Origin: a virus | Taxonomy: Duplodnaviria > Heunggongvirae > Uroviricota > Caudoviricetes | Strand: one strand, 5' to 3' | IMG/VR virus record: IMGVR_UViG_3300046507_000426 | Length of the DNA: 64,000 nucleotides | Shown: piece after piece, positions 7,117-63,504 of the stretch | How positions within the stretch are numbered: position 1 is the stretch's first letter | Layout of the letters: every line of letters starts with the position of its first letter | Made by a program: the position numbers and the translations under genes | The notes under the pieces: model-generated | The model's input: the letters and a program-made list of their open reading frames with translations, nothing else | What the model was told of the DNA's origin: nothing | The model's database searches: none

Positions 7117-8739
7117 TTAGATACGTCCAGCTATAAATTCAGACATGAAACGCGGCGTCTGCGTATCGAAGCCCACAACATCAAGCATGTTCGGATCCTT
7201 GGGATCTGCGATGCTGAAGTCATTGACTGCCATACCGACTACGATCAGCTTTGCATCAGGCTTGTTCATGCCTTGGCGATACTTTTGCATGGCTTGGAAC
7301 GGATGCTGTCTACCAGCATACGTCTCGTTGTCCGTATAGATACAGAACGCATCCACGTTCCAACGGTGTGCAAGCGCATGTTCAGCAGGCAAAGCACAGT
7401 TCGTAGAACCGAAGTTCCAGTCATGCGCCTTGGTGGTAGCCGATTCAAGCGTATCGTGCTTCGTGATGTTCAGCGGCTTGAACGTCTTAGCGAAGCCCAA
7501 CACTTCAGTCCAAGGTTCCGTACGAGCCGAAACCATAGCCATCAGTGCAGCACCTTCACAACACGTCAACTGCGGAACACCCGGAATAGCCGAACCCATT
7601 GAACCTGACACGTCAAGCGCCAGAACAATATTCTTACCAGACGGTTCCACCGCGTCGAACGAAAGGTAGAACGCCGCTTCAAGCGTATCCTTGACGGTAT
7701 TATCCGGGGTCCAAACCAGCGAACCCTTATCGCCCTTGCCTTGAGAGTAGATCTTCTTAGCAACGATAATCGACATCGGATGCAGACGTTCCTTACGAAG
7801 CTGTTCCACATCCAGAAGCTTGGTCGTGACCAGCTTACTCGTTTCCGAGAAAGGCTTGATCAGTCCAACAGCCGTCAGCTTGTTCAGGTTACGAACCAAT
7901 GCATTCAGGCCCATATGCGGAACGAGTGCTTCCCAAATCTTCGGGTCATTCTTTTGCTCATTAGGGATCATTTCATGCGTCAGCTTGTGATCCTGAATCA
8001 GGTTGACAAGTGCGCTGCCGCTAGCAGTCTTGGCTTCTTCAACTGCAATCAGAAGCTCAGGAACCTGGTCACCCAGAGCAAGTGCTTCCGGACCCTTCAC
8101 GATGTACTTGTAAAGGTTTTGACGAACCGTGTCTTCACCAGGCTTCACATGCGACAGACGCATAACGTCCTTGTGCGACCAACCATCACGTTGCTTGTAC
8201 TTCACAACCTGATAGGCGAGATTCGTCACAGTCTTGTCCGCATACCACTTCTGTGCAACGTTCTTAAGCGAACGACCCCAACCTCTAAGTCCATTCGCAA
8301 ATGCAACGAAGTGCAGGAAGTGCGTGCCAGTACGAGCCACGAGGTTCACTTTGTCCTTGGCATACAGTTTCGTAGCCACGTCACCGTGAGTGAAGACCAA
8401 CGCCATAGCAAGCAACGCGTAGTCATTGTTCTTGGCACGACCAGCCTGGCTGATCTCAACGATACGGTCGACCACAACCTTACCATTCGTTTGGATCAAC
8501 TTGACGATATCGTCGACCTTGGCCTTGGTGATATCTTTCTCGGACTGATAGAACGTACCACCGCTCGTACCGATGATCAGGAAACGATCGAGCTTCTGCA
8601 GAGGCGTTACCTCAAACACAAAGCCGCCAGCGTTGTTCTTTACTTGAGCGACAGAAGCATTACCAGCCGGTTTGGTCTGAACCGTAGTCTTTGCTTGAGT
8701 GCGGGTGTTGGTATTGTTAGAGAGGGAATTGAAAGACAT
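7117..8739 (-). CDS. rsr: Ro60/Rsr orthologue (TROVE domain plus C-terminal vWA/MIDAS domain)
   Basis: 540 aa; the N-terminal region matches the TROVE domain as I remember it; C-terminal NIVLALDVSGSMGS (DxSGS MIDAS motif) is vWA-like; domain order and size match Ro60/Rsr. Confidence 0.75.
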   Translation of the reverse strand: MSFNSLSNNTNTRTQAKTTVQTKPAGNASVAQVKNNAGGFVFEVTPLQKLDRFLIIGTSGGTFYQSEKDITKAKVDDIVKLIQTNGKVVVDRIVEISQAGRAKNNDYALLAMALVFTHGDVATKLYAKDKVNLVARTGTHFLHFVAFANGLRGWGRSLKNVAQKWYADKTVTNLAYQVVKYKQRDGWSHKDVMRLSHVKPGEDTVRQNLYKYIVKGPEALALGDQVPELLIAVEEAKTASGSALVNLIQDHKLTHEMIPNEQKNDPKIWEALVPHMGLNALVRNLNKLTAVGLIKPFSETSKLVTTKLLDVEQLRKERLHPMSIIVAKKIYSQGKGDKGSLVWTPDNTVKDTLEAAFYLSFDAVEPSGKNIVLALDVSGSMGSAIPGVPQLTCCEGAALMAMVSARTEPWTEVLGFAKTFKPLNITKHDTLESATTKAHDWNFGSTNCALPAEHALAHRWNVDAFCIYTDNETYAGRQHPFQAMQKYRQGMNKPDAKLIVVGMAVNDFSIADPKDPNMLDVVGFDTQTPRFMSEFIAGRI

Positions 8740-8759
8740 GTTAAGGCTCCTTGAGGAAC

Positions 8760-9165
8760 AAAGTTTAACTGACTAAAAAAAGAAGGTCTGAAAGCCGAAG
8801 CTAACAGACCTTTGGACTTACCTCATGTGGTGTTAAGAAGAACCATGCTGCAGCTCTTCCCCGGGGTACGACGGGTACCCCCAGCTCGTGCTCCTGGAGC
8901 ACATCCCAGTCAGCGAAGCTGAACCGATATCTGACAGAGTTACTCTATCATCGTTTCATTGAAACAAAATACGTAAGTCTTGGTGTTGCGGGGTTATGAC
9001 CTAACCTCATTGCCCGTTCTGGGGCAGATCTCCTCATCGCCTCCGGGTAGTGCAGCGTAGGTCGTGTAGTGCGAAGCACGTAACGAACGTAGCGGAACGG
9101 ACCGGTGGCAGATTTAACCAGGAAGTTGCTCCCTGACTACCAACATACTACTTGGTTACATACGA
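8760..9165 (-). ncRNA. Structured non-coding region immediately upstream of rsr; candidate Y-RNA-like RNA(s)
   Basis: About 400 bp without ORFs; hairpins GGGGTAC-gacgg-GTACCCC (8869-8890) and GTGCTCC-tgg-AGCAC; a GGTCCG element on the minus strand near 9085; Y RNA genes usually sit next to rsr. Confidence 0.3.
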
Positions 9166-9169
9166 AAGG

Positions 9170-9616
9170 TCATTTTTTACTGCGTCTGTATCTTTTTACA
9201 CAATCTTTACATTGACTGTCTATCCCACTATGTCGGGTTCTGTTTTTCCAAAATTCAGAAATTGGTTTAAACGTTTTACACGAGAAACATTCTTGTTTAC
9301 CATCTACTATATTTTTTCGAGTACTCTCGTAGAATTCTTTTCTAGGTTTATTACATTTGAGATGTGAAAATGCAATGTTGTCTATATCCCAGAATAATTC
9401 AGAACCTACATCTAACCAATCTTTTTTATGCTCAATGCTAAGTTCATTTTCTGTTTCAATATCTTTTGAGCATTTAAAACATATATTTTCTCGGTGTCTG
9501 ACTAATAGAGAAAACATTACTTTTTTTTTGAGCTTATTTGTGGCGGTACCAAACGGCATACCTAACTGTTGTGATTTTTTAGAATTTGAATTAGTTGACA
9601 TGCTAAATACTAGCAA
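9170..9616 (-). CDS. HNH homing endonuclease
   Basis: 148 aa; Cys-rich with SIEHKKDWLD...NIAFSHLKCNKP HNH-type motifs; embedded in the non-coding RNA region. Confidence 0.6.
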   Translation of the reverse strand: MLVFSMSTNSNSKKSQQLGMPFGTATNKLKKKVMFSLLVRHRENICFKCSKDIETENELSIEHKKDWLDVGSELFWDIDNIAFSHLKCNKPRKEFYESTRKNIVDGKQECFSCKTFKPISEFWKNRTRHSGIDSQCKDCVKRYRRSKK

Positions 9617-9729
9617 TGTATAAAACTGAAGTGAGCAAATGAAATTGATCTGGAGGAAATCTTAAAAGGATAATCCAAATCTGAACGGCTCACAAACTTG
9701 AAGCTGAACAAAGAGTGTACTGCGCGTTT

Positions 9730-10430
9730 TACGCGTTATACCAGTTTAACTACAGCACAACCAAGAACACAGAATGCTCTTAATTGTGCCGTCAGGATTC
9801 GAACCTGAAATACGTCCTGATAATGGAGATAACACAATACTAGCGGTTCAGCATAAACGGAAGACGAACAAGAGGTGCAAGGGAGATGGTCTTTCGACCT
9901 AACAGTTTTCACCAATTGAAGTTTGTAGATAACCCTACGCTTTCGGTTCGTCGTGAAACTTGATACGAGCAAGGATTGTCAAGGAGATGCAGGCTTCACC
10001 CGCGATAGCTTTAGCTCAAGCAGAGTACAACGGTGTTAGACCTAGGTACTATTCCGTTTCCGGAAACTGCGTAGTACGCTTTATTCTAACTTTGGCTTAG
10101 TAGATAACCTTGAACATTCGGCTCGTGAAACTGATATGGGCAAAGGGTTGAAATGGAATTGGAGGCGGCTGTCTTTACCAATTTGACTAAACCCAACTTA
10201 ATGGGTTACAGGACTCGAACCTGTATATCGCTGCTTGGGGTTAACCCATTTCTACGGCCCATGAACTTTAATTCCAAAACAGTCAATACGACTGCTTCAG
10301 GATTAAAGCGGGAAGTGAACAAAAAGCATAACTAGGAGGTTCTTAGCAATAGATAACCTAGTTAAATACGGCTCACTAAATCTATTATACCACTAAAACG
10401 AAATTTATTGAAAGAGCAAGTTTATGAACT
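9730..10430 (-). ncRNA. Cluster of 2-3 paralogous non-coding RNA units with tRNA-like modules (acceptor-like stem plus canonical T-arm, D-arm-like hairpin); candidate Y-RNA-like (Yrl) RNAs
   Basis: Minus-strand T-arms TCAGG-TTCGAAT-CCTGA (plus 9794-9810) closed by ATTGTG/CACAAT, and ACAGG-TTCGAGT-CCTGT (plus 10219-10235) closed by ATGGGTT/AACCCAT, the latter followed by a D-arm-like GTC-AAATTGGTAAA-GAC; conserved box TAGATAACC...(T)TCGG(C/T)TCG/AC...GAAAC at three sites (about 9926, 10101, 10351); no ORFs over about 1.3 kb (9620-10930). Confidence 0.4.
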
Positions 10431-11039
10431 TGGATAAAATGCGAAGTGTTAGTCCGCGAGGCGGTAACCCAAATTCGTCGGCTCTATTAGTTTGAACTCA
10501 TTCTGCTACGAAGACGAAGCTTAAGTACATCCGGATACCCATCTGGGGAGGTGAACCTGGTCTCATCGACGACTCAGAATTTGCCTTTACCCAGCCACAA
10601 GCTGGGTAATGGTTTTGCTTTTCGCTGTGTGTGCGAGAAGCGTAGAGCACTGTTACAGATACTCTCTGTCCCGTTGTTTTCAACCAATAGATGGCCTTCC
10701 ACAATGACAGTTTAATACTTCAAACTTCTGCTTTGGCAGAGCTACGAAAACTCTGCTTTACTGCTAGTGTACCATGACGTACTCATGTTTACTACTATTC
10801 ACATCTCTGGTACCTGGACGGGGGGCCGCCACCGGTGACATCCTCATCTCGGCGAAGACATCTCGTGTCTCCGCTCCAGCTGTAAGCTGGGCGGGAGACA
10901 ACTTGAAGCTTGTTGCAAACTTCTAGTAACGTTGTCGTTACAAAATACTAAGTCATGTAAGCAATTCTGCAAGGTAACCCTGGTTGCTCATTCAGGGCAG
11001 GAGAACGGACCTTACTTCCGCATGCAACTTGTTCTTGTG

Positions 11040-11243
11040 TTACGTCAGAAGGGCTTGACGATCACGATCTGTGAGGTAACACCGAGGAAACTGTATTTCA
11101 GTGATCTCAGGGCTGTCCTTTGTAACCATGTACTTGCCTTGAGAATCTTCGATCAAGGCAAAACCTTCTTCGTACTCTGCAACGCTAATAACTTCGTTCA
11201 TCATGATCGCCTCTGTTGTTCCGAGATTTAACAGAAGGGACAC
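11040..11243 (-). CDS. Hypothetical small protein (67 aa)
   Basis: ORF on the dominant strand; weak. Confidence 0.3.
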   Translation of the reverse strand: MSLLLNLGTTEAIMMNEVISVAEYEEGFALIEDSQGKYMVTKDSPEITEIQFPRCYLTDRDRQALLT

Positions 11244-11968: not shown

Positions 11969-12267
11969 TCCGGCCTTCTATTCCATTTTTCGTATTTAAT
12001 TGCTACTGTATTCATTCCACAATTTTTGTCCAGGCATTTTACAAATCCATATCTAAATACCGTATTGTTTTGAACATACATATTAATAAGGTGGCCTTTA
12101 CCGCCGCAGAAGGGACAATCCTTTACAGGCTTCTGACTTTCTTTCTTAAGCCACTCTTCAGGAGATCTATTCTTGAAACGTTCAACGGCTTCATTGAAAA
12201 TCTCCTTCATATCCCTCAGTCTTTCACCGCTCTCAGTGGCACTTTCCAAAGGCTTAAGTTCAGTCAT
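11965..12267 (-). CDS. Zn-ribbon protein (Lar-like restriction-alleviation fold possible)
   Basis: 100 aa; CPFCGGKGH...C..NC Cys cluster. Confidence 0.35.
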   Translation of the reverse strand: MTELKPLESATESGERLRDMKEIFNEAVERFKNRSPEEWLKKESQKPVKDCPFCGGKGHLINMYVQNNTVFRYGFVKCLDKNCGMNTVAIKYEKWNRRPE

Positions 12268-12488
12268 AACAATGTAATCCTTCCCGTTACTGTTTTAGGG
12301 AACATCACTGCGCTTGACACAGGTAGAGGTACAGTGTCTCTTGATCGAATAACTTGACCATTGACACGTAATGCGCCTTGGTCAAGCAATCGTCTGAGTT
12401 CACTGTTTGAACATGGCCCCGGTTTACGCTCAGTGCTACGAAACTGACAAACCTCATTGAGATTCATAATGTATTCAAGGCCAGTCAT
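12264..12488 (-). CDS. S4-domain RNA-binding protein (Hsp15/RqcP-like)
   Basis: 74 aa; SELRRLLDQGALRVNGQVIRSRDTV matches the S4 domain alpha-L RNA-binding motif. Confidence 0.5.
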   Translation of the reverse strand: MTGLEYIMNLNEVCQFRSTERKPGPCSNSELRRLLDQGALRVNGQVIRSRDTVPLPVSSAVMFPKTVTGRITLL

Positions 12489-12489: not shown

Positions 12490-12777
12490 TTAACTCTTTT
12501 TAAAGAACTTATCTGCGTAACTATCTGGAAGAGGCCGCGCTATACCTAGAGATTCATAGGTAGCATCATCCGGGACAGATAGCGTGGTGTAATGAAAACC
12601 ATCTCCATCGCAACCAATACCGTTTTCACTATCCATCAAATGCTTGCTATAGGCTTTTGCAAGTTTAGCAATAAGGAGGTAATTGAAAGTAAACTTAGGA
12701 TAGTAACTTCCATCGCCCCCATCATCAACAAGAACGTACAGGCTTTTAGACATGTTGTGCAAGATACTCGTCTGCAA
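12490..12777 (-). CDS. Hypothetical protein (95 aa)
   Basis: ORF. Confidence 0.4.
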   Translation of the reverse strand: MQTSILHNMSKSLYVLVDDGGDGSYYPKFTFNYLLIAKLAKAYSKHLMDSENGIGCDGDGFHYTTLSVPDDATYESLGIARPLPDSYADKFFKKS

Positions 12778-13174
12778 GTCTCTTCAACGTTTTACCGTCG
12801 TACTTACCTGCAAAGTTAAGTTTGAATACGGCCATAATGGCACCGAGCTTATCAATTCCCATATTCTCAATGAGAGTCTTGATTTCCAGCTCAGACAACT
12901 GCGTCGGCATAAACTTCTGCAGCATGTCACGTTCAAGAACCAGCGCGGCTTTCTTGAAGTCGTCCGTTTCCAGCTTGAGCATTTCTGCAAGACCTTCAAG
13001 GCCTTTCTTGATCACGGACAGGACTTCTTCGTCAGTCGGATCACGATTCTCTTTCTTCGTAGCGAGCTGCTTCGCTTCGCCGAGAATGGTGCCAAGCTTA
13101 GTCGAAGTGAAGGTGTCTTTAGCCTTCATTGCTTCGATACGTACTTCTTGCAGATGTTTATACAATGTAGTCAT
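12746..13174 (-). CDS. GatB/YqeY-domain protein
   Basis: 142 aa; the helical, Lys/Glu-rich composition and length fit the GatB_YqeY family. Confidence 0.55.
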   Translation of the reverse strand: MTTLYKHLQEVRIEAMKAKDTFTSTKLGTILGEAKQLATKKENRDPTDEEVLSVIKKGLEGLAEMLKLETDDFKKAALVLERDMLQKFMPTQLSELEIKTLIENMGIDKLGAIMAVFKLNFAGKYDGKTLKRLADEYLAQHV

Positions 13175-13892: not shown

Positions 13893-14126
13893 TTAAAGTC
13901 CTAGCAAAGCTAGAAGTGCTGTGCCTGGAATTACCAACGGCCAGAAGACAGTAGCAGTTAGACACTGACCTATTTCCGTCAACTCAATTTCTCTCCAGGT
14001 TATTTCCCTATGGAATGACTCAGAGATTCCAGACCCAACCATAACGCCGCTTACGAATATGAAACCAACGACGTATATGATTAGAAGGATATGGCCCCAG
14101 CTCATTTCAGATCGTACCAAGCCCAC
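13893..14126 (-). CDS. Small membrane protein (2 TM), holin-like topology
   Basis: ILLIIYVVGFIFVSGVMVG and ATVFWPLVIPGTALLALLGL. Confidence 0.3.
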   Translation of the reverse strand: MGLVRSEMSWGHILLIIYVVGFIFVSGVMVGSGISESFHREITWREIELTEIGQCLTATVFWPLVIPGTALLALLGL

Positions 14127-15028
14127 TTGCCCTGATCCTTGGCATCAACCGATTGCCATGCTGGGCTCGTATTTGTGGTCTCTTGCAAGTCGTCGATGTT
14201 CTTCAGGAAGCATGCACGCAGCGCAGTCAAAGCCGACACGAAGCGTGCAGACTTGTATTCACGAGTCACGAACAACGACCGGATCGAAACCGTCGGCACA
14301 CCCGCCGCGTTCAGGTTACGATACGACAGACGCGCAGGTTGATATACCGCCTTCAGCTTGTCCTGGATCGCAGGTTGAATAGGCAAGAGCCTGTATGTGC
14401 TAGGCAACGCTGCAACTTCTGCCATCGGTTCACCGCCAACGATAACCACACCGTCGACCTGACCCGCGCTCAAAGCTTCGAGCGCAGCCTTGTTCGAAGG
14501 AAACTCCGTCACATTGTAACCAATACCCGACTGGGCTTTGATCACTTTCGCAGTGAGAACCGAACCACCGGCAGCGCCGACGCTACGACCATTCAGATCC
14601 GAAATCGTGTTGAAGTGAATGGTCTTGGCACCGAAGCCTAGAACACCACCTTCCTTCACGCCTTCAGCACGTGCGATCAGGTGAACCTGTTCCGAGTGAA
14701 GCGAGAACAGAGTCTTGACCTTGCTGAGATCTTCGGTCTTGCTACGCAGGATCAGCACGTCGGTCTGAACGAATGCGCCATTGACCTGATTGGCCACCAT
14801 CTTGTCGACGTTTTCGTTCGACCCCGACGACGGTACTTCCTTGATGTCAATACCGCTTCCGGTATCGACACCGCAACGCGCATTCAACTCCCTGAACATC
14901 GCGTGATACGTACCTGCAGGCCCGCCAGTTGCTACGGCGAGAGATTGAGCGTGAGCAGCGTGACACACGAGAAATGTGAGCAACGCTGTGAGAATGATCA
15001 AAGGGATACGGGGAACGCGGGACCAAAT
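14102..15028 (-). CDS. Secreted periplasmic substrate-binding-like protein (TAXI/PhnD-type solute-binding fold)
   Basis: Signal peptide MIWSRVPRIPLIILTALLTFLVCHAAHA from internal ATG; mature region resembles phosphonate/TRAP-TAXI solute-binding proteins; assignment from memory. Confidence 0.4.
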   Translation of the reverse strand: MWSRVPRIPLIILTALLTFLVCHAAHAQSLAVATGGPAGTYHAMFRELNARCGVDTGSGIDIKEVPSSGSNENVDKMVANQVNGAFVQTDVLILRSKTEDLSKVKTLFSLHSEQVHLIARAEGVKEGGVLGFGAKTIHFNTISDLNGRSVGAAGGSVLTAKVIKAQSGIGYNVTEFPSNKAALEALSAGQVDGVVIVGGEPMAEVAALPSTYRLLPIQPAIQDKLKAVYQPARLSYRNLNAAGVPTVSIRSLFVTREYKSARFVSALTALRACFLKNIDDLQETTNTSPAWQSVDAKDQGKWAWYDLK

Positions 15029-15834
15029 CATGACTTCTCCTGGGTATTGGAAAGAAAGAGGATGCAGAAAACTTCGGTGTAGCCGAACACACAAACTACG
15101 GCAAGCAGAATTGCCGCTGCGTCAAGCAGCAGATTTGTAATGTCCACTTAGTTCACCTTCAGGTCTTTGAGATTGTTATCGTCCGAGGACGGGGCCGCAG
15201 CCGGAGCCGAGGGCTGGGATACGCCTGTGGAGTCATCAGAGCCCACAGAAGCGGTCGACGTGGTGTGGTCAAAGGCGAAGTAGCCACCCACGCACACCAG
15301 GACCACCAAGAGGCTGGCAATCAGTCTATACACAGTTAGTGTACTCCGAAGAAAGTTCAAGTTTAATTACAGGCTCGTGAAGCCGAGAGCCGTGCATCGG
15401 ATCAATCCAGCAGTACTGCGGAGCAATATCGTGTTCACCATGCCAGATACGCCCTGACTGATGTTCCAATCTTTGACCACAATGACTACAGTAAACATCG
15501 ATAACAGGCACGTTTACCCTCGGTTGAGATGAGACAGTAGAATATCCGCTGAGGTTTCATCCTGAATCGTAACGAGGTAATCACCGTCAGGATCCAGAAT
15601 ATCCCAAGTACCAGTGCCGTCAGGTTGTTTCGTGTACATTAAAAACTCCAGGTATGGATTTCTTTACCGCACTGACCGCAGTTGAACCCATCGTAGCCTT
15701 CACTACAGCCACTCATATCTTTTCCACGATACAGCTCCCGGACTTCGTCGGGCAGATACTCGTTGATGGCTCCGCAGTGAGAGCACGTAACGCGCTTAGC
15801 TACGGAAGTGTCTTGGCCAACTACTTTAGGCATG

Positions 15835-16811: not shown

Positions 16812-17435
16812 TCATTCCTGTTCTCCATAAACAACTACGCGGATAGCCTCACGCAGTTTAGGCCATTCATTCCACGTAAAACCCAATTCCGGGTTTTGCT
16901 TCTTTAATTGCCCACCCTTGTTATAGGGCTGTGCGTAATGCAGGTGATCCCATACCGGTTTACGTGAACCTTTGATCGCTGGTTTATCATCGATCAGAAG
17001 GTCGCCGATAACCATCGTCTTGTCCTTCGTGATGATCGTGTTCTTGACCCAGAAAGGTCCGAAGTGAAGATTGGTCCACTGGACCTTTTCTGAATGGCAC
17101 ATCAAGTCTTCGTACTCGACTTCTGGCGAAGTACAGAAGAAAGGATTGATGAAGTCCAGGCAGTTTTCCTCAATGTCTTTCAGGGCTTCTTTCGCCCCCT
17201 CCATCACCGGCAGGAACGTGTAGAAACCTTTCTGACGGGCAATTGCCACAACGTCATCACGGTGTTCTTCCGGATACAGTTCTTCGACGTAGAACTTGGT
17301 CACATCTTCAGGTTTGACATATGGACGATCTGGATACTGCGCCTGATATAATGTCAGAAGACCCGGATACCACTTTGCTACAACCCCATCCATGTCGATG
17401 AGTAGGTCAAATTTTTCAATGAGAGCGTCAGCCAT
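16812..17435 (-). CDS. 5'(3')-deoxyribonucleotidase (HAD superfamily, NT5C-like; dmp-like)
   Basis: 207 aa; N-terminal LLIDMDGVVA carries the DxDG(V/T) HAD nucleophile motif; resembles NT5C-type deoxyribonucleotidases. Confidence 0.6.
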   Translation of the reverse strand: MADALIEKFDLLIDMDGVVAKWYPGLLTLYQAQYPDRPYVKPEDVTKFYVEELYPEEHRDDVVAIARQKGFYTFLPVMEGAKEALKDIEENCLDFINPFFCTSPEVEYEDLMCHSEKVQWTNLHFGPFWVKNTIITKDKTMVIGDLLIDDKPAIKGSRKPVWDHLHYAQPYNKGGQLKKQNPELGFTWNEWPKLREAIRVVVYGEQE

Positions 17436-21154: not shown

Positions 21155-21206
21155 GATTTTTTAACGCCTCGTTAAATTAAAGTTGCCTACTCTTTGTAGG
21201 ACTTGG

Positions 21207-25309: not shown

Positions 25310-25385
25310 GGTCCCGCCTGAGGAACTCGAATCCCCAACAGACGGAGTAGAAATCCGTTATTCTATCCAATTGAATTAAGGCGGG
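25310..25385 (-). tRNA. tRNA-Arg (anticodon TCT)
   Basis: Minus strand: acceptor CCCGCCT/AGGCGGG, D-stem ATTC/GAAT, anticodon arm ACGGA-TTTCTAC-TCCGT, T-arm GGGGA-TTCGAGT-TCCTC. Confidence 0.7.
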
Positions 25386-25389
25386 CCTA

Positions 25390-44949: not shown

Positions 44950-44961
44950 TTTAACCCCGAA

Positions 44962-45330: not shown

Positions 45331-45581
45331 TGCACCGTCTTGCCAAACGAAGTGTCAACCTCGAAGGTTTGACCTTCACCTTCGACCTTCTGGTTATCAA
45401 TGTTATTTAGAAGCTTCTCATAAGCCTCCGGATCTTCTGCTGCAAGTTGGTCCAGATCAACAGGTTCTGCTTCACTAAAGAAAGAGCCGTCAGCAATCGC
45501 AGCTTTAATCTCTGCAATAATCTCTTCTTTCTCTTCTTCCGTAATGCCGTCAAAGGCACCTTCTGCAATTACGACTTTCAT
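45327..45581 (-). CDS. Small acidic protein (84 aa)
   Basis: ORF. Confidence 0.35.
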   Translation of the reverse strand: MKVVIAEGAFDGITEEEKEEIIAEIKAAIADGSFFSEAEPVDLDQLAAEDPEAYEKLLNNIDNQKVEGEGQTFEVDTSFGKTVH

Positions 45582-45985
45582 ACTGCATCCTTGTTAAAAA
45601 GTACGTCGGTATTGAGGAGACTCAGTTTTGCAAAGTAAATCAGCTCATGATACCACTCATCTACTGGGGTATTATCGTGGATCATTTGAAGACTGTCCAA
45701 GAAAAACACTTCATCGTCGATTACATTTTCCTCAAACAATTCCTGTAGCCGTGCGTCACATGCAATTACACTGCTTGAGGTTTGTTCTTCGATTGACGGA
45801 TCGTACAACTCGTCAGGGATCAAACAGCCAACTGCGCACATAAGGCCGTTATTACCACGATACATGCACTTCGTCATCTGCTTACCCGTATGCGGATTTT
45901 CTCCGTCAGGGGCAACGCTTTTCTCATACTGCTTCAACAGATGCAACGAAACCTTGTTAAACACGTCTTGTTTGCTAAGTGCCAT
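45578..45985 (-). CDS. Hypothetical protein (135 aa)
   Basis: ORF. Confidence 0.4.
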   Translation of the reverse strand: MALSKQDVFNKVSLHLLKQYEKSVAPDGENPHTGKQMTKCMYRGNNGLMCAVGCLIPDELYDPSIEEQTSSSVIACDARLQELFEENVIDDEVFFLDSLQMIHDNTPVDEWYHELIYFAKLSLLNTDVLFNKDAV

Positions 45986-46011
45986 TTTGCAACCTAAAGA
46001 AGAAATGGAAA

Positions 46012-46096
46012 TGGTCCGACTGACCAGACTCGAACTGGTACGCCAAAAGGCGACGGATTTTAAGTCCGTTGCGGCTACCGATTACGCCACAGTCGG
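46012..46096 (-). tRNA. tRNA-Leu (TAA), type II
   Basis: Acceptor CCGACTG/CAGTCGG, anticodon arm ACGGA-CTTAAAA-TCCGT, long variable arm CGCCTTTTGGCG, T-loop TTCGAGT, CCA encoded. Confidence 0.7.
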
Positions 46097-54531: not shown

Positions 54532-55833
54532 TTACTTGTTTTTCGTTACGACAAGCATCGTCGAAGTATGAACGCCATTTACTGCATCGCCGATACCTTG
54601 GCCGATGGTCGAAATTGCATGGGACTTAGAGATTTTCCAGAGCCAATCGTAGAAGTCCTGTTCATTCATTTCCCACTTGTGATCATCGTGACGGAACTGA
54701 TCTTCTGTCATCAGATAATTCACATTGAAAGCCTTGTTCGGAACCGTGATAACCAACTTGTTAAAGTCAGTCTTCAGAACGGCATCAACAAGCTGTTTTG
54801 CATCTTTAAGAGGAATGTGCTCCAGAACTTCTGTGATGAGCACGTCTGCTCCGCTAAAGAGCAAGGAACACTCATCAATCGATTCGGGAGTTGCAGCATC
54901 TCGGAGAATAACGTTTTCGACTTCTCGTCCCTTGAGTTTTTCAAGCATGTTCTCGCGGAGTTCGTCATCCGCTTCAAACGCAAGGACTTGTTCATATTTC
55001 GAACTGAGCGGGAGCGTGTAATTGAGTTCACCGCACCCAATGTCAATGAGTGTCGCTCCTCCTCCCAGATGGGGGAAGATAGCTTCTTTACGCTGAGCAA
55101 GGGTGTCACCGTGCCAGAGGTCGATCGTGTCCGTATCAAGCAGCGATTTGTTCTTAAGAAATGTGTCACGATTTGAGAATACATTCCGTTTGAAGAGGTA
55201 ACGAATGAAGTACGGTGCATTGATACGATTTATCGCAGCAATATACTTCTCGACGATATCGCCCTTGAGATTGACGTAAATGCTTTTTGTCGAAACGCAG
55301 AACATCAGGAAAATTACCATTGCCGCATTGAGCATTTCGTGAACTGTAGGCCCCGAGATAGTGACCTTGTACGCACAGCCTGCGATATGTTCGGCTACAA
55401 AGCTGTACCCATTGTCCAACCCGAAGGAACCATTGAAGTGTTGATTCAGATGATTCAACATGCTGGCGCTGCGAATTTCGACCGTAGTTTCCAGGTACGC
55501 ACTCCAAGATTCCGAAGTGTCTTCTTCCTGATGTGTTTTAAACGCTGTTGCCAAACAGTTCGTAATCAGCGAAATCGGCAAGTAGGGAGACGCATAGCGG
55601 GTACGGTCAAGATATTCAAACTCTTGGCCAATGCCCTCCGCAAAAGAACAGTTCTGAGGACTGTCTTTAAACCAAAGCCGAAAGCTTTGATCATCGGCTC
55701 CGAACCATCCATACGCCATACCTTGACGGATCGATTTCTTGTAGGGCTCTGCACTTTCACGAATCGTTGCAGGGTTCTTGGAAATGATCCAGGAAAACTT
55801 GGGGTTCGAAGACCCGATAGTAAGTACGGCCAT
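54532..55833 (-). CDS. hen1: Hen1-like RNA 3'-terminal 2'-O-methyltransferase (bacterial Hen1, Pnkp partner)
   Basis: 433 aa; C-terminal Rossmann SAM-MTase motif I LIDIGCGELN plus acidic motifs; N-terminal domain of Hen1 size; immediately upstream of and co-directional with pnkp, 10-nt spacing. Confidence 0.65.
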   Translation of the reverse strand: MAVLTIGSSNPKFSWIISKNPATIRESAEPYKKSIRQGMAYGWFGADDQSFRLWFKDSPQNCSFAEGIGQEFEYLDRTRYASPYLPISLITNCLATAFKTHQEEDTSESWSAYLETTVEIRSASMLNHLNQHFNGSFGLDNGYSFVAEHIAGCAYKVTISGPTVHEMLNAAMVIFLMFCVSTKSIYVNLKGDIVEKYIAAINRINAPYFIRYLFKRNVFSNRDTFLKNKSLLDTDTIDLWHGDTLAQRKEAIFPHLGGGATLIDIGCGELNYTLPLSSKYEQVLAFEADDELRENMLEKLKGREVENVILRDAATPESIDECSLLFSGADVLITEVLEHIPLKDAKQLVDAVLKTDFNKLVITVPNKAFNVNYLMTEDQFRHDDHKWEMNEQDFYDWLWKISKSHAISTIGQGIGDAVNGVHTSTMLVVTKNK

Positions 55834-56348: not shown

Positions 56349-56527
56349 GAAATCATGGACAGAATAGAAGCAGGTACGAATGCGAACAGATTAGTAAGTC
56401 CAGAAAGAAAACCATGACCGTCATCGAAAGGCCAGAATAAAGCCCAGCTGAAACTAAGAATAGTTATCAACGTAGGAATCATCCACCATTGAAAATGAAT
56501 AGTGATAGTCATAACTGCTTTTCCCAT
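56321..56527 (-). CDS. Small membrane protein (68 aa)
   Basis: Two hydrophobic helices. Confidence 0.3.
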   Translation of the reverse strand: MGKAVMTITIHFQWWMIPTLITILSFSWALFWPFDDGHGFLSGLTNLFAFVPASILSMISWIIAGVLK

Positions 56528-57516
56528 TCTTCAAATACACGTTTAACATGAGCTTCGACTTGTTCTGAAGTCATCGACTCAATTCTCTTCAGAAACGCTT
56601 CCCGGTCGTTGCCTCGGTAGTCCGCCATAAATCCGCCAAGCTCTTTACCTTGTAACCCTGTCCAGAGGCCGACGAATTCACCGTTGAACTTCTTCTTGAC
56701 TTTTTCGACTCTGAAGTAATCAAACGTGGCGTGGATAAATTCCATTGCGACGTCTGGACGTTCTTTTGCGGCGATAAGAAATCCATGATCCCTCGGCATA
56801 CGTTCGGACGGAAGATTCTTGTCTTTCATCCATTCCAGAAAATCCATATACGTCTTGCGTTTCTTATCCCGTACACGGCCAACAGCGTTTCGATTCTCTA
56901 GTTGGTAATTCCACGTAGTGAAGAATTTGCTTTTACAGGTGAAAACAAAAATGTCTTCGAGGTTACGAAAACCAGCGTTGTACTCAAACATGCTGTAGCC
57001 CAGAAGATGAAGAGCCACAGCGAAGTCTTTCGTAATGCAAATTTCTTTGACAAGTTGAGTATCTACAATGTATTTATACCACAGACCATCGTGGCCGAAC
57101 TTAAGTCCAACGCCATGAGCAGTCTGGCCGATAAGATTGCCTAAATCGTTATAGGCAAAGTACTTCAAAGCGAAGTCGAAATCTTCGTCAGGCACGGTGA
57201 TGAAGTCGATTTGAAAAATAGCCCGTTTCATCAACAGGGCTGTGATTTCCAAACCGAACGATAAGACGTTACCGTTCTGATGATATTCAGGAGAAACTAA
57301 AGCCTTCTCCACAAACTCCCGAAGCTTATCCATCGGGATGCCTGAAATCAGAATGTCCAAATCTCCAAAGCTTTCCTTTTCTTCATATGCAGGAATAACT
57401 GCAACCTTAGCATCGGGAAAAGCCTGTTTCAAAACATCAGAAGTCCCAGCAGCTACGTGTTCATAGTACTTTTTTTCTAATCTGACTGTTTGAAGTTTGA
57501 GTGCATTACCGCCCAT
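56509..57516 (-). CDS. Putative Pol-beta-superfamily nucleotidyltransferase
   Basis: 335 aa; N-terminal MGGNALKL... with the acidic motif ESFGDLDILISG resembles the NTase active-site hG(G/S)...DhD pattern; helical C-terminal domain; function speculative. Confidence 0.3.
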   Translation of the reverse strand: MGGNALKLQTVRLEKKYYEHVAAGTSDVLKQAFPDAKVAVIPAYEEKESFGDLDILISGIPMDKLREFVEKALVSPEYHQNGNVLSFGLEITALLMKRAIFQIDFITVPDEDFDFALKYFAYNDLGNLIGQTAHGVGLKFGHDGLWYKYIVDTQLVKEICITKDFAVALHLLGYSMFEYNAGFRNLEDIFVFTCKSKFFTTWNYQLENRNAVGRVRDKKRKTYMDFLEWMKDKNLPSERMPRDHGFLIAAKERPDVAMEFIHATFDYFRVEKVKKKFNGEFVGLWTGLQGKELGGFMADYRGNDREAFLKRIESMTSEQVEAHVKRVFEEWEKQL

Positions 57517-57758: not shown

Positions 57759-58502
57759 TTAATTCTCCGCTAGAGTTTTCTTCGCTTTCTCAAGCACGTC
57801 AATTACTTTGTCAATGTCAAACTTATCTTCAGTCCGAACTCCAGATTCCATGTCGATCCAGAAGAACCCTTCTGTTTCGTCACGATGCATCTGAAGCAAA
57901 TTGAACAAAGTCTGTTCTACGTTTTCCGGATTGATTCCGCCTGCGTAGCCAACCGCCAACCTACTCGCAAACGGTTCAGGTGCGTCTGGCCAACCGCCAG
58001 TTTCAAGATAAGAAGTACCGCGTCCACCAGAAGCATCAAGCAGGATTTTGATATCGTTAGGAACTTCATCTTCGAACATCCCATTTAGTAACACGTCTGT
58101 CGACGAGTTGTATTGTAGAATAACGTCACAGCTCTCACCTCGCTCTTTAGCGAATGTGAAAATTTGGCTCTTGTTTTCTTCAGTAAGCTTATTGAACTGA
58201 ATTGCATTAAAGCCCATCGTTACTTCGTTTTCAAAGTAATCGTATGAGGCTAAAAATGTGTCTACTGATTTGCCGCACAGGTGTGCAGAAATCGAATAGA
58301 AATTACCACGGTGATACGTTGCTCCATAAAACTGCTCTCTCCATTGAGCAGTCGGATAACGCGGTTGGCCTTCTCGTGATTTTGAAAACAGAATACCCCA
58401 TTCTACAGATAGGACATCAGAATACTCTCGACCGATTTCATCGAGAATTTCTGGATTAACTTCATCGTCTGCACCGGTAATTGTTACGCCAACCTCAATC
58501 AT
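57759..58502 (-). CDS. TIM-barrel protein resembling phosphoribosylanthranilate isomerase (TrpF-like)
   Basis: ILLDASGGRGTSYLETGGW...LAVGYAGGINPENV...IDMESGVRT resembles TrpF blocks; from memory. Confidence 0.3.
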   Translation of the reverse strand: MIEVGVTITGADDEVNPEILDEIGREYSDVLSVEWGILFSKSREGQPRYPTAQWREQFYGATYHRGNFYSISAHLCGKSVDTFLASYDYFENEVTMGFNAIQFNKLTEENKSQIFTFAKERGESCDVILQYNSSTDVLLNGMFEDEVPNDIKILLDASGGRGTSYLETGGWPDAPEPFASRLAVGYAGGINPENVEQTLFNLLQMHRDETEGFFWIDMESGVRTEDKFDIDKVIDVLEKAKKTLAEN

Positions 58503-59010: not shown

Positions 59011-60714
59011 TTACGCTCTCATCTTCATCAACATATCATTCACAGCTTGCTGCGTAATGCCAGGCTTCACTTCTTTTACCTGACCCCAGTTAAAACCAAT
59101 TTCACCTTCCACGCCAATCGGAAGGTCCAGCCAATCGAAATGCTCTACGGGCCATTCGTTCATGTAATAGAACGCTGTCTCGATCACTTCTGCTGCACGT
59201 TCAATCGGTACTTCGAATTCTACCGAATCATACACGGTACAGATACTCTTACAACGTGGATCGATCTTTTGAATCGCCTGGTCCAAATGTGCAAACGTTA
59301 CAAGACCAAGCGTAGACGTTGCACTTTGAATACGAACGTTTTGTGCATTGCGCAGCGATGCGTTATATGCTGCGGTACGCTTGAACGCAGGCTGAGCAAC
59401 ATACTCGTGCTTGTACTGACCAAACGGAGTCCATACTTTCTGGTTCAACAGTGCCATCTGATGCGATTCTTCAATGTAGTCTTTAACGCCGGGATAAGCG
59501 TTGAAGTACATATTGACCAGTCGCTCTGCCTCACTCTTTTCTAACTGCAACTGCATTGCAATACCATTCACTGACGAGCCATATAAAATTGAAAAAGTTA
59601 AAACTTTTGCAACTTGTCGCATACGCTTGTACTCTTTCTTCAGAGGATGCGAATCATCTTCCAGGATATGGATATAGTCTTCGTACGGCACACCCATCAT
59701 CGCACTTGCCGAAAATGAATGGAAATCCAAACCTTCAGCAATTGCACGAAGCATATTCTTGTCTTTACAGATAGCTCCTAAGATTTTTACTTCTGCTGAC
59801 GAGAAATCAAAAGCGATGAACACATTACCGTTAGCAACAGTGTAGCACTCTCGGACATTATAACCATGCTTTGGACGGGGAAGCTGAGTTAAATTGGGTG
59901 AATCTGCGGTTATTCTAAAACTGCTAGTGCCAAACATGTTGTAACTAGGATGAATACGTCCATCCGTACGAACGAAATCTTCTACATACGTTTTAATAAA
60001 AGTATTATGGACGCTATTGATATCTTTTCGTTTAGCCATATCAGCTAAAAACTGTTTTTCAGGATCCGGGGCTGTATATTGATTAGCTAACGGATTCAAT
60101 CCAGCCAACGTCAAAAGCGCAGCACCATCAGTTGCGTCATCGCCAGACTTAGTCTTGAACGGTGCTTCAAGTCCTAGTTCACCATAAAGATACTGAGACA
60201 CTTCAACGCCAGAGTCTAGATTGATTCGCTTACCAATTGCACTGAAAATCTTCTCATCAAACTCTGCTACTTCCTGGACCATCTGCTGCGAGATTGCCCG
60301 GTTCCTAGCTATATCATAAAGCATCCCATTAATTTCGAGATTAATAATGAACTCATGACAAAGCATTTCCGTCTCTAGAACGGACTTGATAATACCAGGT
60401 GCTGTTATTTTCTTAGGTTGCCCATTTTTCTGAGGCATCAATAACTCTTGTGGCTTTACTAAAGCAGGCCACAATGCAGTAAGAACTTCTGAAGTTACTA
60501 TATTATCAATTCCTGCATACAACATCAAATCAGAATAGTTAAAGTCTTCATATGTACGGTAGATTTTCTTCTCTTCAGAAATCTCAACTACCGTCGGTTC
60601 TTTCTTCTTTCGAGCCTTTTTACTAGCCGGGGCTTCTACAGCTTTTTCGACAACCTTGTCTCCTAGTACTTCTGCGATAGGTTTTTTGGATTTAGGTACA
60701 ATACGTTTAATCAT
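59011..60714 (-). CDS. Family A DNA polymerase, polymerase domain (C-terminal part of split PolA)
   Basis: 567 aa; motif A-like FDFSSAEVKI, motif B RMRQVAKVLTFSILYGSS, motif C VYDSVEFEV. Confidence 0.75.
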   Translation of the reverse strand: MIKRIVPKSKKPIAEVLGDKVVEKAVEAPASKKARKKKEPTVVEISEEKKIYRTYEDFNYSDLMLYAGIDNIVTSEVLTALWPALVKPQELLMPQKNGQPKKITAPGIIKSVLETEMLCHEFIINLEINGMLYDIARNRAISQQMVQEVAEFDEKIFSAIGKRINLDSGVEVSQYLYGELGLEAPFKTKSGDDATDGAALLTLAGLNPLANQYTAPDPEKQFLADMAKRKDINSVHNTFIKTYVEDFVRTDGRIHPSYNMFGTSSFRITADSPNLTQLPRPKHGYNVRECYTVANGNVFIAFDFSSAEVKILGAICKDKNMLRAIAEGLDFHSFSASAMMGVPYEDYIHILEDDSHPLKKEYKRMRQVAKVLTFSILYGSSVNGIAMQLQLEKSEAERLVNMYFNAYPGVKDYIEESHQMALLNQKVWTPFGQYKHEYVAQPAFKRTAAYNASLRNAQNVRIQSATSTLGLVTFAHLDQAIQKIDPRCKSICTVYDSVEFEVPIERAAEVIETAFYYMNEWPVEHFDWLDLPIGVEGEIGFNWGQVKEVKPGITQQAVNDMLMKMRA

Positions 60715-61345
60715 ATTTCTTACGATAATTAATTGTGGATAAGGCTTTTTCTAAAGGCCAGTTATTTTTCAAACGAGTATGTAGAGTTGTAACTGAAATG
60801 CCTAATTTTTCAGCCCACTGTAATTGTGTCATGGTTTCGTTTTTGAAAGTGATAATTTTCGTAGAACGTCTGTTATTACTTTGTTCTTTATTATCGGACC
60901 ATTTACAATTAGCTTTACAATAATTCCCATTTACATCTATACGATCTATGGAAAGTCCCTCTGGCCTTTCTCCCATATCTTTTAGAAATGCTTCAAATGA
61001 TTTCCACCGTTCATCTACGGATATACCCCTTCCACCGTAGTTTGGATAATTATCTTGAGCCTCATCCGTACAGCGAGCCCACATACTTATCCAAGTTTTA
61101 TACGTCTTGGTTTTACTTAGTCCATGCGTCTGACTTCTGATAACAGTTAATTCTTTAGCCAAACAGCCACAAGAGTTACTATCTCCACCTCTAAGTGAAG
61201 CTCCTGATATAGATTTAATATTTCCACAACTGCATTTACAAATCCAAAAAGGCCGTTTAGAAACTCGTTCGACGTCTATACCTGTAACGGTTAACCTACC
61301 AAAGACTTTACTTGTTAAGTCGATGTATCTACTTTTCATCTTCAA
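60707..61345 (-). CDS. Free-standing homing endonuclease (HNH-type) splitting the DNA polymerase gene
   Basis: 212 aa; Cys-rich N-terminus, W...RC...YPNYGGRGISVDERW block common in phage homing endonucleases; sits exactly between the exo-domain and pol-domain ORFs. Confidence 0.45.
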   Translation of the reverse strand: MKMKSRYIDLTSKVFGRLTVTGIDVERVSKRPFWICKCSCGNIKSISGASLRGGDSNSCGCLAKELTVIRSQTHGLSKTKTYKTWISMWARCTDEAQDNYPNYGGRGISVDERWKSFEAFLKDMGERPEGLSIDRIDVNGNYCKANCKWSDNKEQSNNRRSTKIITFKNETMTQLQWAEKLGISVTTLHTRLKNNWPLEKALSTINYRKKYD

Positions 61346-62582: not shown

Positions 62583-62638
62583 TGTGTTACCTCACTAAAA
62601 ACAATATTGTACCACCAAGCTATTTGCCCGGCAGTACG

Positions 62639-62647
62639 CTTATACCG
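62639..62647 (-). promoter_or_regulatory. TTGGTATAAG-type promoter (variant CGGTATAAG)
   Basis: Plus cttataccg. Confidence 0.35.
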
Positions 62648-62664
62648 CAATTGTTGCTACTAAT

Positions 62665-63504
62665 TTAGGCAACGTTGGCTTGATCGTGGAAGAGCCTGAA
62701 ACTACCATCGCTTACCGTCAACGACGTAAGCTTCGGAATGTTCGTGAGCCTCACGATCGCACTACGTTCTACTTCCCTGCTACCGCGATGCTTCTCCGGG
62801 ATACGATTCCAGGTTCCGTCATCGATCAGCATGATCTTCTTAACTTTACGGGTGAACGTGCCTTGACGGAACGACTCTGGGTACTCTGCAAAGTTGATGC
62901 CTTTCTCACGTAACATTTCAATTTTCTCAGCAGTGTTCTTCTTGTGAAGTTCACCATGAAAAAAGACACTGTGTGCAGCCATGCTTACGCTATTCTTTCT
63001 GGCGTCCCACTGCCTCCAGATAAAATAATCGTATGCCAGGTCCCAACGAGGATACTGATATACCCGAGCATCGAAGACTGGGCGTTCAGCAAACTTGTTT
63101 GGTAGAAAGCCCTGCAGGTACGAGTTAAAAATAACCGAACACTTTGCTGCATACACACTCAACCACTTCTGAACGCTACCATCAAACTCAAGAGGTTTCT
63201 CAGTATCGAGATTGAACCAGAAGAGGCTGATCTCATCGCTTTGATGATATGCGAGATCAGGATTCAAATCTCGAATCAGATCGTCGACCGTGCATTGGAA
63301 TGTCTGTGCCAGATCCTTGTCGTAAGGCTTGCTAAGGTTCTTTGTGAACGTGTGAAAAGCGTTGCCGTCGAAACGGATGACCGTGGGAAGACCAGGCATC
63401 AGTTTTTCACTGAAGTAGTTCTTCTCATATTTCTTATGCATGTCACCTAGCGCCTTGAAGTCTAGGTGACGGATTTGTTCGATAGTTTGTACGTTGTCGT
63501 TCAT
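62665..63504 (-). CDS. Thg1-like protein (tRNA-His guanylyltransferase family 3'-5' polymerase; tRNA 5'-end repair)
   Basis: 279 aa; VIRFDGNAFHTFTK (Thg1 VVRIDGRAFHNFTK), QSDEIS (QSDEYS), FDARVYQYP (FDGRVVLYP), YFIWRQWDARKNS (YLSWRQVDCHINN). Confidence 0.7.
   Translation of the reverse strand: MNDNVQTIEQIRHLDFKALGDMHKKYEKNYFSEKLMPGLPTVIRFDGNAFHTFTKNLSKPYDKDLAQTFQCTVDDLIRDLNPDLAYHQSDEISLFWFNLDTEKPLEFDGSVQKWLSVYAAKCSVIFNSYLQGFLPNKFAERPVFDARVYQYPRWDLAYDYFIWRQWDARKNSVSMAAHSVFFHGELHKKNTAEKIEMLREKGINFAEYPESFRQGTFTRKVKKIMLIDDGTWNRIPEKHRGSREVERSAIVRLTNIPKLTSLTVSDGSFRLFHDQANVA

Follow-up and report, generated by a model that had tools for sequence, protein, structure and literature searches.

Phages that carry many tRNAs along with RNA-repair enzymes have been described. 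The Xanthomonas jumbo phage XacN1 encodes 56 tRNAs, two Thg1 proteins, a CCA enzyme, PNKP, Hen1, a peptidyl-tRNA hydrolase (PTH) and an amidotransferase-like gene (Yoshikawa et al. 2018, PMC5852040), and a survey of jumbo phages has read such parts as counter-measures to attack on the translation apparatus (Iyer, Anantharaman, Krishnan, Burroughs and Aravind 2021, PMC7824862). Here we analyse a set of this kind in IMG/VR record IMGVR_UViG_3300046507_000426, a stretch of 64,000 nucleotides (nt) from a tailed phage (Caudoviricetes), which we refer to as the window. An original prediction had placed tRNAs, RNA-repair enzymes, the Ro60 orthologue Rsr with Y-RNA-like RNAs and several translation-related proteins between positions 7117 and 63504 and supposed that no comparable phage set was known. 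The latter view has to be given up, as XacN1 in 2018 and the survey of 2021, which includes TROVE proteins, already report such sets.

Defences that cleave tRNA (PrrC, RloC, PARIS, retron-Eco7, Septu, OLD and Schlafens) are increasingly recognised as an important branch of bacterial immunity. To our knowledge, the phage answers to them are single items, either the T4 pair of Pnkp and Rnl1 or individual decoy tRNAs. It has been argued that phages use tRNAs of their own, RNA-repair enzymes and peptidyl-tRNA hydrolases to counter attacks by the host on tRNA or ribosomes (PMC7824862), and viral tRNAs neutralise PARIS and retron defences experimentally (PMC11464382, PMC11555353). Pnkp heals and seals breaks with 2',3'-cyclic-phosphate and 5'-OH ends, and Hen1 methylates the junction so that it is not cut again (PMC4411300, PMC3675462). 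Phage Y RNAs beside Ro60 have been known since 2014 (PMC4201824), and a structurally characterised Ro60 from a Thermus phage binds Y-like RNAs and host PNPase and attenuates the latter (PMC12135203).

Gene set and its retention in related phages

The window represents the arm of an uncultured tailed phage that contains its replication and accessory genes; the G+C content is about 45%, and nearly all genes are on the minus strand. All components of the set are found on this strand, within or close to the predicted span, and ten of the eleven that had been named hold by hidden Markov model (HMM), motifs or structure; the call that fails is that of an S4-like open reading frame (ORF). A megablast search with 20 kb against cultured phages gave tRNA-sized matches only, indicating that there is no close cultured relative at the DNA level. 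Comparison of family A polymerase (PolA) places Salmonella phage Arash (48% identity) and three Vibrio phages (44%) nearest among cultured phages.

Synteny with the window is seen in four IMG/VR contigs of 88-181 kb, and the rsr region is common to two further contigs. The four syntenic contigs encode, in the same order and at 45-94% amino acid (aa) identity, Rsr, a YqeY-domain protein, a GGQ fusion protein, the Pth2-type proteins PTH2a and PTH2b, Pnkp, Hen1, a nucleotidyltransferase (NTase) and a Thg1-like protein. Several small neighbouring ORFs, unlike the set, are absent from these relatives. The proposed co-occurrence is thus borne out for all parts but the S4-like ORF, and since four diverged contigs keep them, the set is beyond chance.

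On balance, we think it probable that this lineage has accumulated and kept genes that sustain translation when tRNAs are cut, trimmed or depleted in infection. Judged from the sequence, a role in counter-defence is plausible, and the tRNA damage would most likely stem from host defence nucleases rather than from the phage's own take-over.

Occurrence among 50,697 cultured-phage records is unequal:

Rsr: 377 records
Thg1: 161 records
YqeY: 46 records
PTH2a-like: 33 records
Hen1 with the ligase part of Pnkp: 5 records
Full-length Pnkp (at least 80% coverage): 0 records
GGQ fusion (at least 80% coverage): 0 records

These frequencies, as well as the unrelated genes interspersed with the set across 56 kb, favour another explanation, namely that there is no coordinated system and that the genes are accessory ones, independently acquired and with separate roles, some of them acting on DNA. 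Such an origin is hard to reconcile with the co-retention of all parts but one in four contigs at the above levels of identity, with the tight adjacency of hen1 and pnkp, with the location of PTH2a within a tRNA cluster and with that of the Y RNAs next to rsr; we regard it as distinctly improbable. As regards Rsr in the five Hen1-positive cultured phages, which include XacN1 and sm033, the analysis covered RYC and two Stenotrophomonas phages, and the organism counts of the Rsr matches speak against its presence in the latter two.

Repair of RNA ends

The break-sealing enzymes are encoded by two neighbouring genes:

52099-54522, minus strand: Pnkp, 807 aa, polynucleotide 5'-kinase, 2',3'-phosphatase and RNA ligase (Pfam, motifs, PDB)
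54532-55833, minus strand: Hen1, 433 aa, RNA 3'-terminal ribose 2'-O-methyltransferase with a Pnkp-activating N-terminal domain

Pfam, motifs and PDB matches all support the predicted pair. As in bacterial-type Pnkp, P-loop kinase, metallophosphoesterase and ligase modules are found in one polypeptide, with Pfam scores of 77 bits for PNKP_ligase, 37.6 bits for Metallophos and 25.7 bits for AAA_33 (just below the cut-off of 27). The P-loop GPSMCGKT is located at residue 15, GNHE at 269 and ligase motif I, KYMGS, at 520. Among PDB structures, the Rnl chain of the C. gingivalis Pnkp1-Rnl-Hen1 complex matches best (E 4e-36), and the ligase and phosphatase of CthPnkp are matched as well. Against the NCBIfam equivalog TIGR04075 the protein scores 124.6 bits and does not reach the cut-off of 750; it is a divergent phage version of the enzyme.

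Hen1 contains both the N-terminal domain (Pfam Hen1_N, 175.7 bits, E 1e-51) and the S-adenosylmethionine (SAM) methyltransferase domain of the bacterial protein. It aligns over its full length with C. gingivalis Hen1 (4XRP_C, E 2e-26) and also with the methyltransferase domains 3JWG and 3JWH, and the methyltransferase motifs DIGCGE, EVLEH and HDDHKWE are aligned. The score for the equivalog TIGR04074 (62.7 bits) stays below the cut-off of 340. The hen1 gene ends 9 nt upstream of pnkp, and the pair is retained in all relatives.

Compared with bacterial Pnkp-Hen1 and Pnkp1-Rnl-Hen1 (PMC3675462, PMC4411300), the kinase, phosphatase and ligase motifs and both Hen1 domains are alike, whereas the pair studied here is phage-encoded and ordered hen1 then pnkp. 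The ligase domain most resembles Rnl, which is a separate protein in the three-protein system, but here it is fused to the other modules, like the ligase of classical Pnkp. Vibrio phage RYC (locus L006, 10937-14154) arranges the domains of this repair system differently: the ligase homologue is a separate ORF of 350 aa, and the Hen1 homologue makes up the N-terminal part of an ORF of 717 aa that is annotated as polynucleotide kinase.

Two further enzymes are nucleotidyltransferases:

62665-63504, minus strand: Thg1-like protein, 279 aa, 3'-5' nucleotidyltransferase (Pfam Thg1, 91 bits, E 6e-26)
56509-57516, minus strand: Pol-beta-superfamily NTase, 335 aa (motifs, AlphaFold and Foldseek)

The Thg1-like protein is confirmed by its Pfam match and by the FDG and HQSDEIS carboxylate motifs of the catalytic domain, which are aligned and conserved. 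Its best PDB match is the Thg1-like protein of Bacillus thuringiensis (4KGK, E 1e-33), to which it is nearer than to eukaryotic Thg1. Bacterial-type Thg1-like enzymes are repair polymerases that refill 5'-truncated tRNAs. A phage tRNA-His was considered as its possible substrate; neither the window nor those stretches of the relatives that were fetched contain a gene for one.

The NTase had been predicted to be of the Pol-beta type and possibly to act in 3'-end or CCA repair; only the first of these assignments stands. Residues G51, D52, D54 and D104, representing the GS/GD-x-D signature and the third palm carboxylate, are invariant in 32 sequences. An AlphaFold model (predicted local distance difference test, pLDDT, 93.8) suggests a Pol X-like palm and thumb and a helical C-terminal domain, and the top Foldseek matches are Pol lambda, beta and mu (E 4e-7, template modelling (TM) score about 0.4). 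Neither the PolyA_pol/CCA family nor PF10127 is matched and the fold is that of family X DNA polymerases, so that a CCA-adding enzyme or RlaP can be dismissed. A Pfam search gave no match even at E 10; the protein belongs to phrog_24943, 'DNA polymerase' (E 4e-39), and has at least 1613 uncharacterised homologues without a Pfam label.

In a more distant compost phage (locus L033), the NTase gene lies beside that for PolA-RNaseH, there is no Hen1 nearby and the Pnkp position holds a kinase-phosphatase homologue only. In a Burkholderia-associated element it is found near an RNA ligase and RNase H. The neighbours in these two genomes associate the NTase with end-healing and end-sealing enzymes and with replication genes. 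They also fit the independent acquisition of accessory genes: the Pol X-like NTase, which in structure best matches DNA polymerases, could fill gaps in DNA, and the ends that Pnkp heals could be DNA ends; the points raised above against that explanation apply here too, and we continue to prefer a role of the set in sustaining translation. A gene between those for RNase H and the NTase (57759-58502, minus strand) encodes a protein of 247 aa whose PRAI-like match is weak; all relatives and the compost phage retain it.

Rsr and its Y-RNA-like array

Rsr and the adjoining RNAs occupy the low-coordinate end of the set:

7117-8739, minus strand: Rsr, Ro60 orthologue with TROVE ring and vWA domain, 540 aa (Pfam vWA_Ro60, E 1.2e-57; TROVE, E 1.3e-36)
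9630-10487, minus strand: tandem Y-RNA-like array of seven units, upstream of rsr
Units of the array: U1 10487-10411, U2 10377-10314, U3 10263-10135, U4 10127-9964, U5 9952-9863, U6 about 9852-9705, U7 9694-9630

The case for Rsr with Y-RNA-like RNAs proved stronger than originally claimed, with seven tandem units, two of which bear tRNA-like modules. Both TROVE and vWA are far over the Pfam cut-offs. The NCBIfam Rsr equivalog is matched at positions 19-530 of 531 with 475 bits, under the cut-off of 900, and Rsr is 74-76% identical in six IMG/VR contigs. In the established biochemistry of this family, Rsr bearing a Y RNA directs PNPase.

The array spans 860 nt between an inserted HNH gene and an ORF-poor stretch, and its units are arranged head-to-tail. 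Each unit has a closing stem of 6-7 bp, conserved unpaired bases (CCG 5' and CUUUUG 3'), a further stem and a GGUUAUC motif. U3 and U6 also include T-arm, variable stem-loop and D-arm, permuted in order as is typical of YrlA. In a permissive search, Rfam gave a weak YrlA match in the window (9735-9810, 23.3 bits, E 0.14), and an orthologous unit in a relative (locus L007) covers the whole YrlA model with 39.8 bits (E 1e-6). No unit reached the gathering score of RF02553 (69), and a search at gathering thresholds found no Y RNA.

We scanned both strands of the window with a detector consisting of the 5' motif and the closing stem and found units in this array only. The inner stem was not used in detection. 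When 27 distinct 5' strands were paired with their own partners or with those of other units, the mean energies were -9.2 and -4.2 kcal/mol, respectively (Mann-Whitney p 3e-17, a value that overstates independence because the units are related to each other). Arrays of 7-8 units are located beside rsr in all relatives. The adjacency to rsr, the partner-specific stems and the T-arm/D-arm module identify these RNAs as Y-RNA-like, and they are predicted to bind Rsr.

Directly upstream of the array is an ORF-poor stretch of 550 nt (10490-11040, minus strand), which has 72% identity over 472 nt to a relative (locus L009), a predicted minimum free energy of -187 kcal/mol and, at E up to 5, no counterpart in Rfam. 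The stretch may represent another large structured RNA or a long leader. A G+C-rich non-coding stretch of 430 nt (8740-9170, minus strand) separates the HNH gene from the start of rsr; it is conserved in relatives only at its last ~110 nt and in a 44-nt block, and it terminates in a terminator-like hairpin and U run just ahead of rsr.

The attenuation of host PNPase by the Thermus phage Ro60 and its Yrl RNAs (PMC12135203) suggests a purpose of the set other than counter-defence. A phage that degrades or outcompetes host RNA and differs in codon usage could use these genes for take-over and to carry a high translation load, with Rsr and the Y RNAs restraining host PNPase and protecting phage transcripts. 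That the window contains no recognisable anti-nuclease inhibitor agrees with such a purpose. On the other hand, the role of Pnkp-Hen1 is known only in the repair or protection of cleaved RNA, and bacterial-type Thg1-like enzymes, to judge by the best match 4KGK, are repair polymerases; the retention of break-sealing enzymes would be left unexplained. We consider a set that serves take-over rather than defence to be unlikely.

The 7-8 Y RNAs might form an adaptor set that tethers a single Rsr ring to different partners, making Rsr a triage hub from which damaged tRNAs are passed on to repair or degradation. The partners would be host PNPase, tRNA-recognising enzymes (via the tRNA-like modules) and the phage Pnkp-Hen1 or Thg1-like protein. 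This idea is a long shot; if true, it would provide a physical link between parts that are so far merely co-retained.

tRNA genes and translation-related proteins

The tRNA genes are found in two clusters and two smaller loci:

25310-26380, minus strand: tRNA cluster A, with Arg(UCU), Gly(UCC), Trp(CCA) and Lys(UUU) (ARAGORN and Rfam)
37972-38142, minus strand: tRNA-Met(CAU) and an adjoining tRNA-like gene (ARAGORN, Rfam)
39441-39516, minus strand: tRNA with CUA anticodon, potential amber suppressor (ARAGORN; Rfam tRNA, 60 bits)
41135-46096, minus strand: tRNA cluster B, 15 tRNAs, namely Pro, Ile, Val, Met, Phe, Thr, Cys, Tyr, Ser, Glu, Gln, Leu, Ala, Asn and Leu (ARAGORN, Rfam)

The claim of 20 or more tRNAs is correct: ARAGORN finds 20 in the window and Rfam adds two. 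One of the latter (26310-26380) was resolved as tRNA-Lys(UUU), and the other (38073-38142) is tRNA-like, with an Rfam tRNA score of 49.5 bits and, in relaxed ARAGORN, an aberrant anticodon loop of six bases. Cluster B encloses PTH2a and one HNH gene. The relatives have 20-21 tRNAs apiece plus a suppressor-type tRNA.

ARAGORN labels the tRNA with the CUA anticodon 'Pyl' on the basis of the anticodon alone. The gene, which sits 115 nt upstream of PTH2b, is present in three of the four relatives and is replaced by a UCA tRNA in the fourth (relative loci L015, L016, L029-L031; L013/L032). Because of the CUA anticodon, stop-codon recoding was considered; in the genes of the window, TAG is a rare but normal stop (4/54), and recoding of late genes is possible. 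The retention of a suppressor tRNA (CUA or UCA) in the lineage points to translational reprogramming rather than repair and so adds to the case for take-over, as does the treatment of the XacN1 tRNAs by codon usage (PMC5852040).

Five protein genes with a link to translation had been predicted:

42893-43303, minus strand: PTH2a, canonical Pth2, 136 aa (Pfam PTH2, 107.5 bits, E 6e-31)
39003-39326, minus strand: PTH2b, divergent Pth2-fold protein, 107 aa (Pfam PTH2, 22.4 bits; cut-off 23)
31736-32266, minus strand: GGQ (RF-1 domain) protein with an additional C-terminal domain, 176 aa (Pfam RF-1, residues 10-75, 56 bits, E 4e-15)
12746-13174, minus strand: YqeY-domain protein, GatB C-terminal-like, 142 aa (Pfam PF09424, 43.3 bits, E 5e-11; cut-off 27)
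12264-12488, minus strand: S4-like ORF, weak, 74 aa (Pfam S4, 26 residues covered, 19.4 bits, E 9e-4; cut-off 22.8)

Pth2 recycles peptidyl-tRNA. Two such proteins had been proposed, and of these PTH2a is canonical: its score for NCBIfam TIGR00283 (100.2 bits) is over the cut-off of 82. The gene lies between tRNA-Cys and tRNA-Tyr, and the protein has 67-77% identity in the four relatives.

PTH2b (about 64% identical in the four relatives) has the Pth2 fold and lacks the conserved lysine. A profile of its 31-member family matches only Pth2 chains in the PDB, and the top 15 Foldseek matches of the AlphaFold model (pLDDT 87) are all Pth2 (E 4e-7, TM score 0.75-0.82), with nothing else significant, which settles the assignment to the Pth2 fold. 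A single-sequence search of the PDB gave no match, and a profile-profile comparison with PTH2a aligned 28 columns at 59% probability. D16-Q17 is invariant in the 31 family members, where Pth2 chains have G-K or K-K and PTH2a has G18-K19. A conserved lysine before helix 1 is reported to be catalytic in archaeal Pth2. Since invariant Asp-Gln replaces Gly-Lys or Lys-Lys in PTH2b, its activity may differ.

The GGQ protein is release-factor-like as predicted: its GGQ motif is intact and it matches domain 3 of RF2/RF1 (E 1e-15), with the RF-1 domain in common with rescue factors of the ArfB/PrfH/ICT1 type. In place of the basic tail of ArfB or the PrfH-type domain, the C-terminal half has an uncharacterised phage domain, phrog_8298, which stands alone in many phages. 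There is no ArfB model match and only a weak one to PrfH (31.7 bits, cut-off 166); because the C-terminal domain is unrelated, the protein is not ArfB. The fusion is retained in the four relatives.

The YqeY-domain call is sound, the Pfam cut-off being passed, and phrog_1460, 'tRNA amidotransferase', is matched with E 7e-25; identity in five related contigs is 66-68%. The label S4/Hsp15-RqcP-like had to be withdrawn. The Pfam score is below threshold, no NCBIfam or PDB sequence is matched, the family (phrog_28515, function unknown) has six homologues in all, none Pfam-labelled, and the ORF was not found in the four related contigs. It possibly lies outside the set.

A possible order of events

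The analysis establishes gene identities, catalytic motifs, folds, the Y-RNA array with its pairing and the retention of the set in four relatives; substrates, timing, a host-defence trigger and cooperation between the parts are inferred. The scheme that follows is favoured by the gap of 9 nt between hen1 and pnkp, the location of PTH2a inside a tRNA cluster, the Y RNAs beside rsr and the co-retention in relatives, and by the published work cited above on Pnkp-Hen1 repair, on large phages, on viral tRNAs and on a phage Ro60. First, host isoacceptors that are lost would be replaced by the ~22 phage tRNAs, among which are Lys(UUU), Tyr, Asn, Arg(UCU) and Met, the targets of known anticodon nucleases. 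At a break, Hen1 would first methylate the 2'-OH, so that the mended tRNA would resist re-cutting there, and Pnkp would remove the 2',3'-cyclic phosphate, phosphorylate the 5'-OH and seal the break. The Thg1-like enzyme would then refill 5'-truncated acceptor stems. In a fourth step PTH2a, perhaps with PTH2b and the GGQ protein, would free peptides from drop-off or ribosome-jamming peptidyl-tRNAs. Finally, Rsr and one of the seven Y RNAs would handle misfolded or damaged RNA, probably via host PNPase.

Several observations weigh against this scheme. The genes are spread over 56 kb among those for ribonucleotide reductase, PolA, ThyX and NAD salvage, that is, among replication and nucleotide-metabolism genes, and do not form one operon; their co-regulation is only assumed, and to speak of a 'coordinated module' is too strong. 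Pnkp, Hen1 and Rsr are far below their NCBIfam equivalog cut-offs, so that their activities may differ from those of the bacterial enzymes. PTH2b lacks the conserved lysine, the GGQ protein has no known ribosome-binding partner domain, and the Thg1-like gene is unaccompanied by a tRNA-His gene. Vibrio phage RYC, the nearest holder of Hen1, has the pair of Pnkp ligase and Hen1 and, in the two-thirds of its genome examined, no tRNAs, Rsr or other parts, which indicates that parts of the set can work alone.

Other genes in the window

The usual phage replication and nucleotide-metabolism genes are present, with some accessory ones:

Replication and nucleotide genes of the window: ribonucleotide reductase, RNase H, ThyX and deoxynucleotidase
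PolA: interrupted by an HNH gene, with the UDG-exonuclease part upstream
19757-22355, minus strand: NAD+ salvage pair, NAMPT followed by NMNAT-Nudix (Pfam NAPRTase, NAMPT_N; CTP_transf_like and NUDIX)
14102-15094, minus strand: TRAP/NMT1-like solute-binding protein
16812-17435, minus strand: NT5C deoxynucleotidase
9170-9616, minus strand: HNH-type homing-endonuclease-like ORF (one of five)
28076-28600, minus strand: HNH-type ORF
38183-38728, minus strand: HNH-type ORF
43458-43997, plus strand: HNH-type ORF
60707-61345, minus strand: HNH-type ORF
29360-31143, minus strand: five tandem paralogous ORFs, 117-122 aa
33864-37963, minus strand: SPFH/Band 7 protein and 712-aa AAA ATPase

The NAD+ salvage pair is outside the translation-repair set, yet it brings a counter-defence theme to the same region: such a pair is discussed in the jumbo-phage survey (PMC7824862), and the genes fit the published idea of a counter to NAD+-depleting defences. 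NAMPT and NMNAT-Nudix are likewise annotated as a pair in Salmonella phage Arash, and genes like the salvage pair, the solute-binding protein and NT5C are annotated in Vibrio phage RYC and Arash.

One HNH-type ORF separates the Y-RNA array from rsr, two occur amid tRNA genes and another interrupts PolA between the exonuclease/UDG part and the polymerase part. In phage T6, a homing endonuclease amplifies anti-defence tRNA loci, as described in a 2026 paper (PMC13096335). The five tandem paralogues have the motifs KWVAALRSGEYKQ, FCCLGVLCD and LNDSG..F.QIAD in common and gave no match in a Pfam search. The genes for the SPFH/Band 7 protein, which has 80-88% identity in relatives, and for the AAA ATPase are located between the GGQ and tRNA-Met genes.

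Comparison with known systems

The concept of such a set is already published and the lineage is uncultured, so that the gain is a well-defined test case, a rich new example without a new principle. With replacement tRNAs, repair made re-cut-proof by Hen1, 5'-end repair, peptidyl-tRNA recycling and an Rsr/Y-RNA machine, a mid-sized lineage containing all layers would be a compact natural system in which to test how the layers add up. The large array could also reveal the purpose of multiple Y RNAs, an open question in Ro60 biology.

XacN1 resembles this lineage in its many tRNAs, Thg1, PNKP with an adjoining Hen1-like methyltransferase, PTH and a 'glutamyl-tRNA amidotransferase'-type gene, and it is among the five cultured-phage records that match both the Hen1 and the Pnkp ligase domain described here. 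It differs in being a 385-kb jumbo phage with its 56 tRNAs in terminal repeats and a CCA-adding enzyme, and the paper (PMC5852040) mentions no Ro/TROVE protein, Y RNA or release-factor-like gene. The XacN1 match spans 43% of our Pnkp. As identity is ~30%, the two sets were assembled independently.

The jumbo-phage survey (PMC7824862) contains nearly the same parts: tRNAs, RNA ligases with kinases or phosphoesterases, TROVE proteins with a tRNA-like partner, Pol-beta NTases, Thg1, PTH2 and NAD+ salvage. It covers phages of more than ~200 kb, whereas the contigs related to the window are 88-181 kb. Sealing in the surveyed phages is by Rnl1, Rnl2 or RtcB, in contrast to the bacterial-type Pnkp-Hen1 found here, and a text search of the survey found no mention of Hen1.

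In the known Rsr/Yrl systems of bacteria and phages (YrlA and YrlB, Chen et al. 2014, PMC4201824; Thermus phage phiLo Ro60, PMC12135203), Y-like RNAs are likewise encoded directly upstream of rsr, at least one bears a tRNA-like module, and the GGUCCGA Ro-binding motif resembles the closing helix with CCG and CUUUUG described above. These systems have two Y RNAs per bacterium or phage species, and vertebrates up to four, compared with 7-8 tandem units per phage in the present lineage (PMC4201824, PMC12135203). What is new here, in comparison with all of these, is a full three-domain Pnkp with Hen1 in a lineage that also has Rsr and an unusually large Y-RNA array, together with a GGQ fusion unseen in cultured phages and a second, lysine-less Pth2, all below jumbo size.

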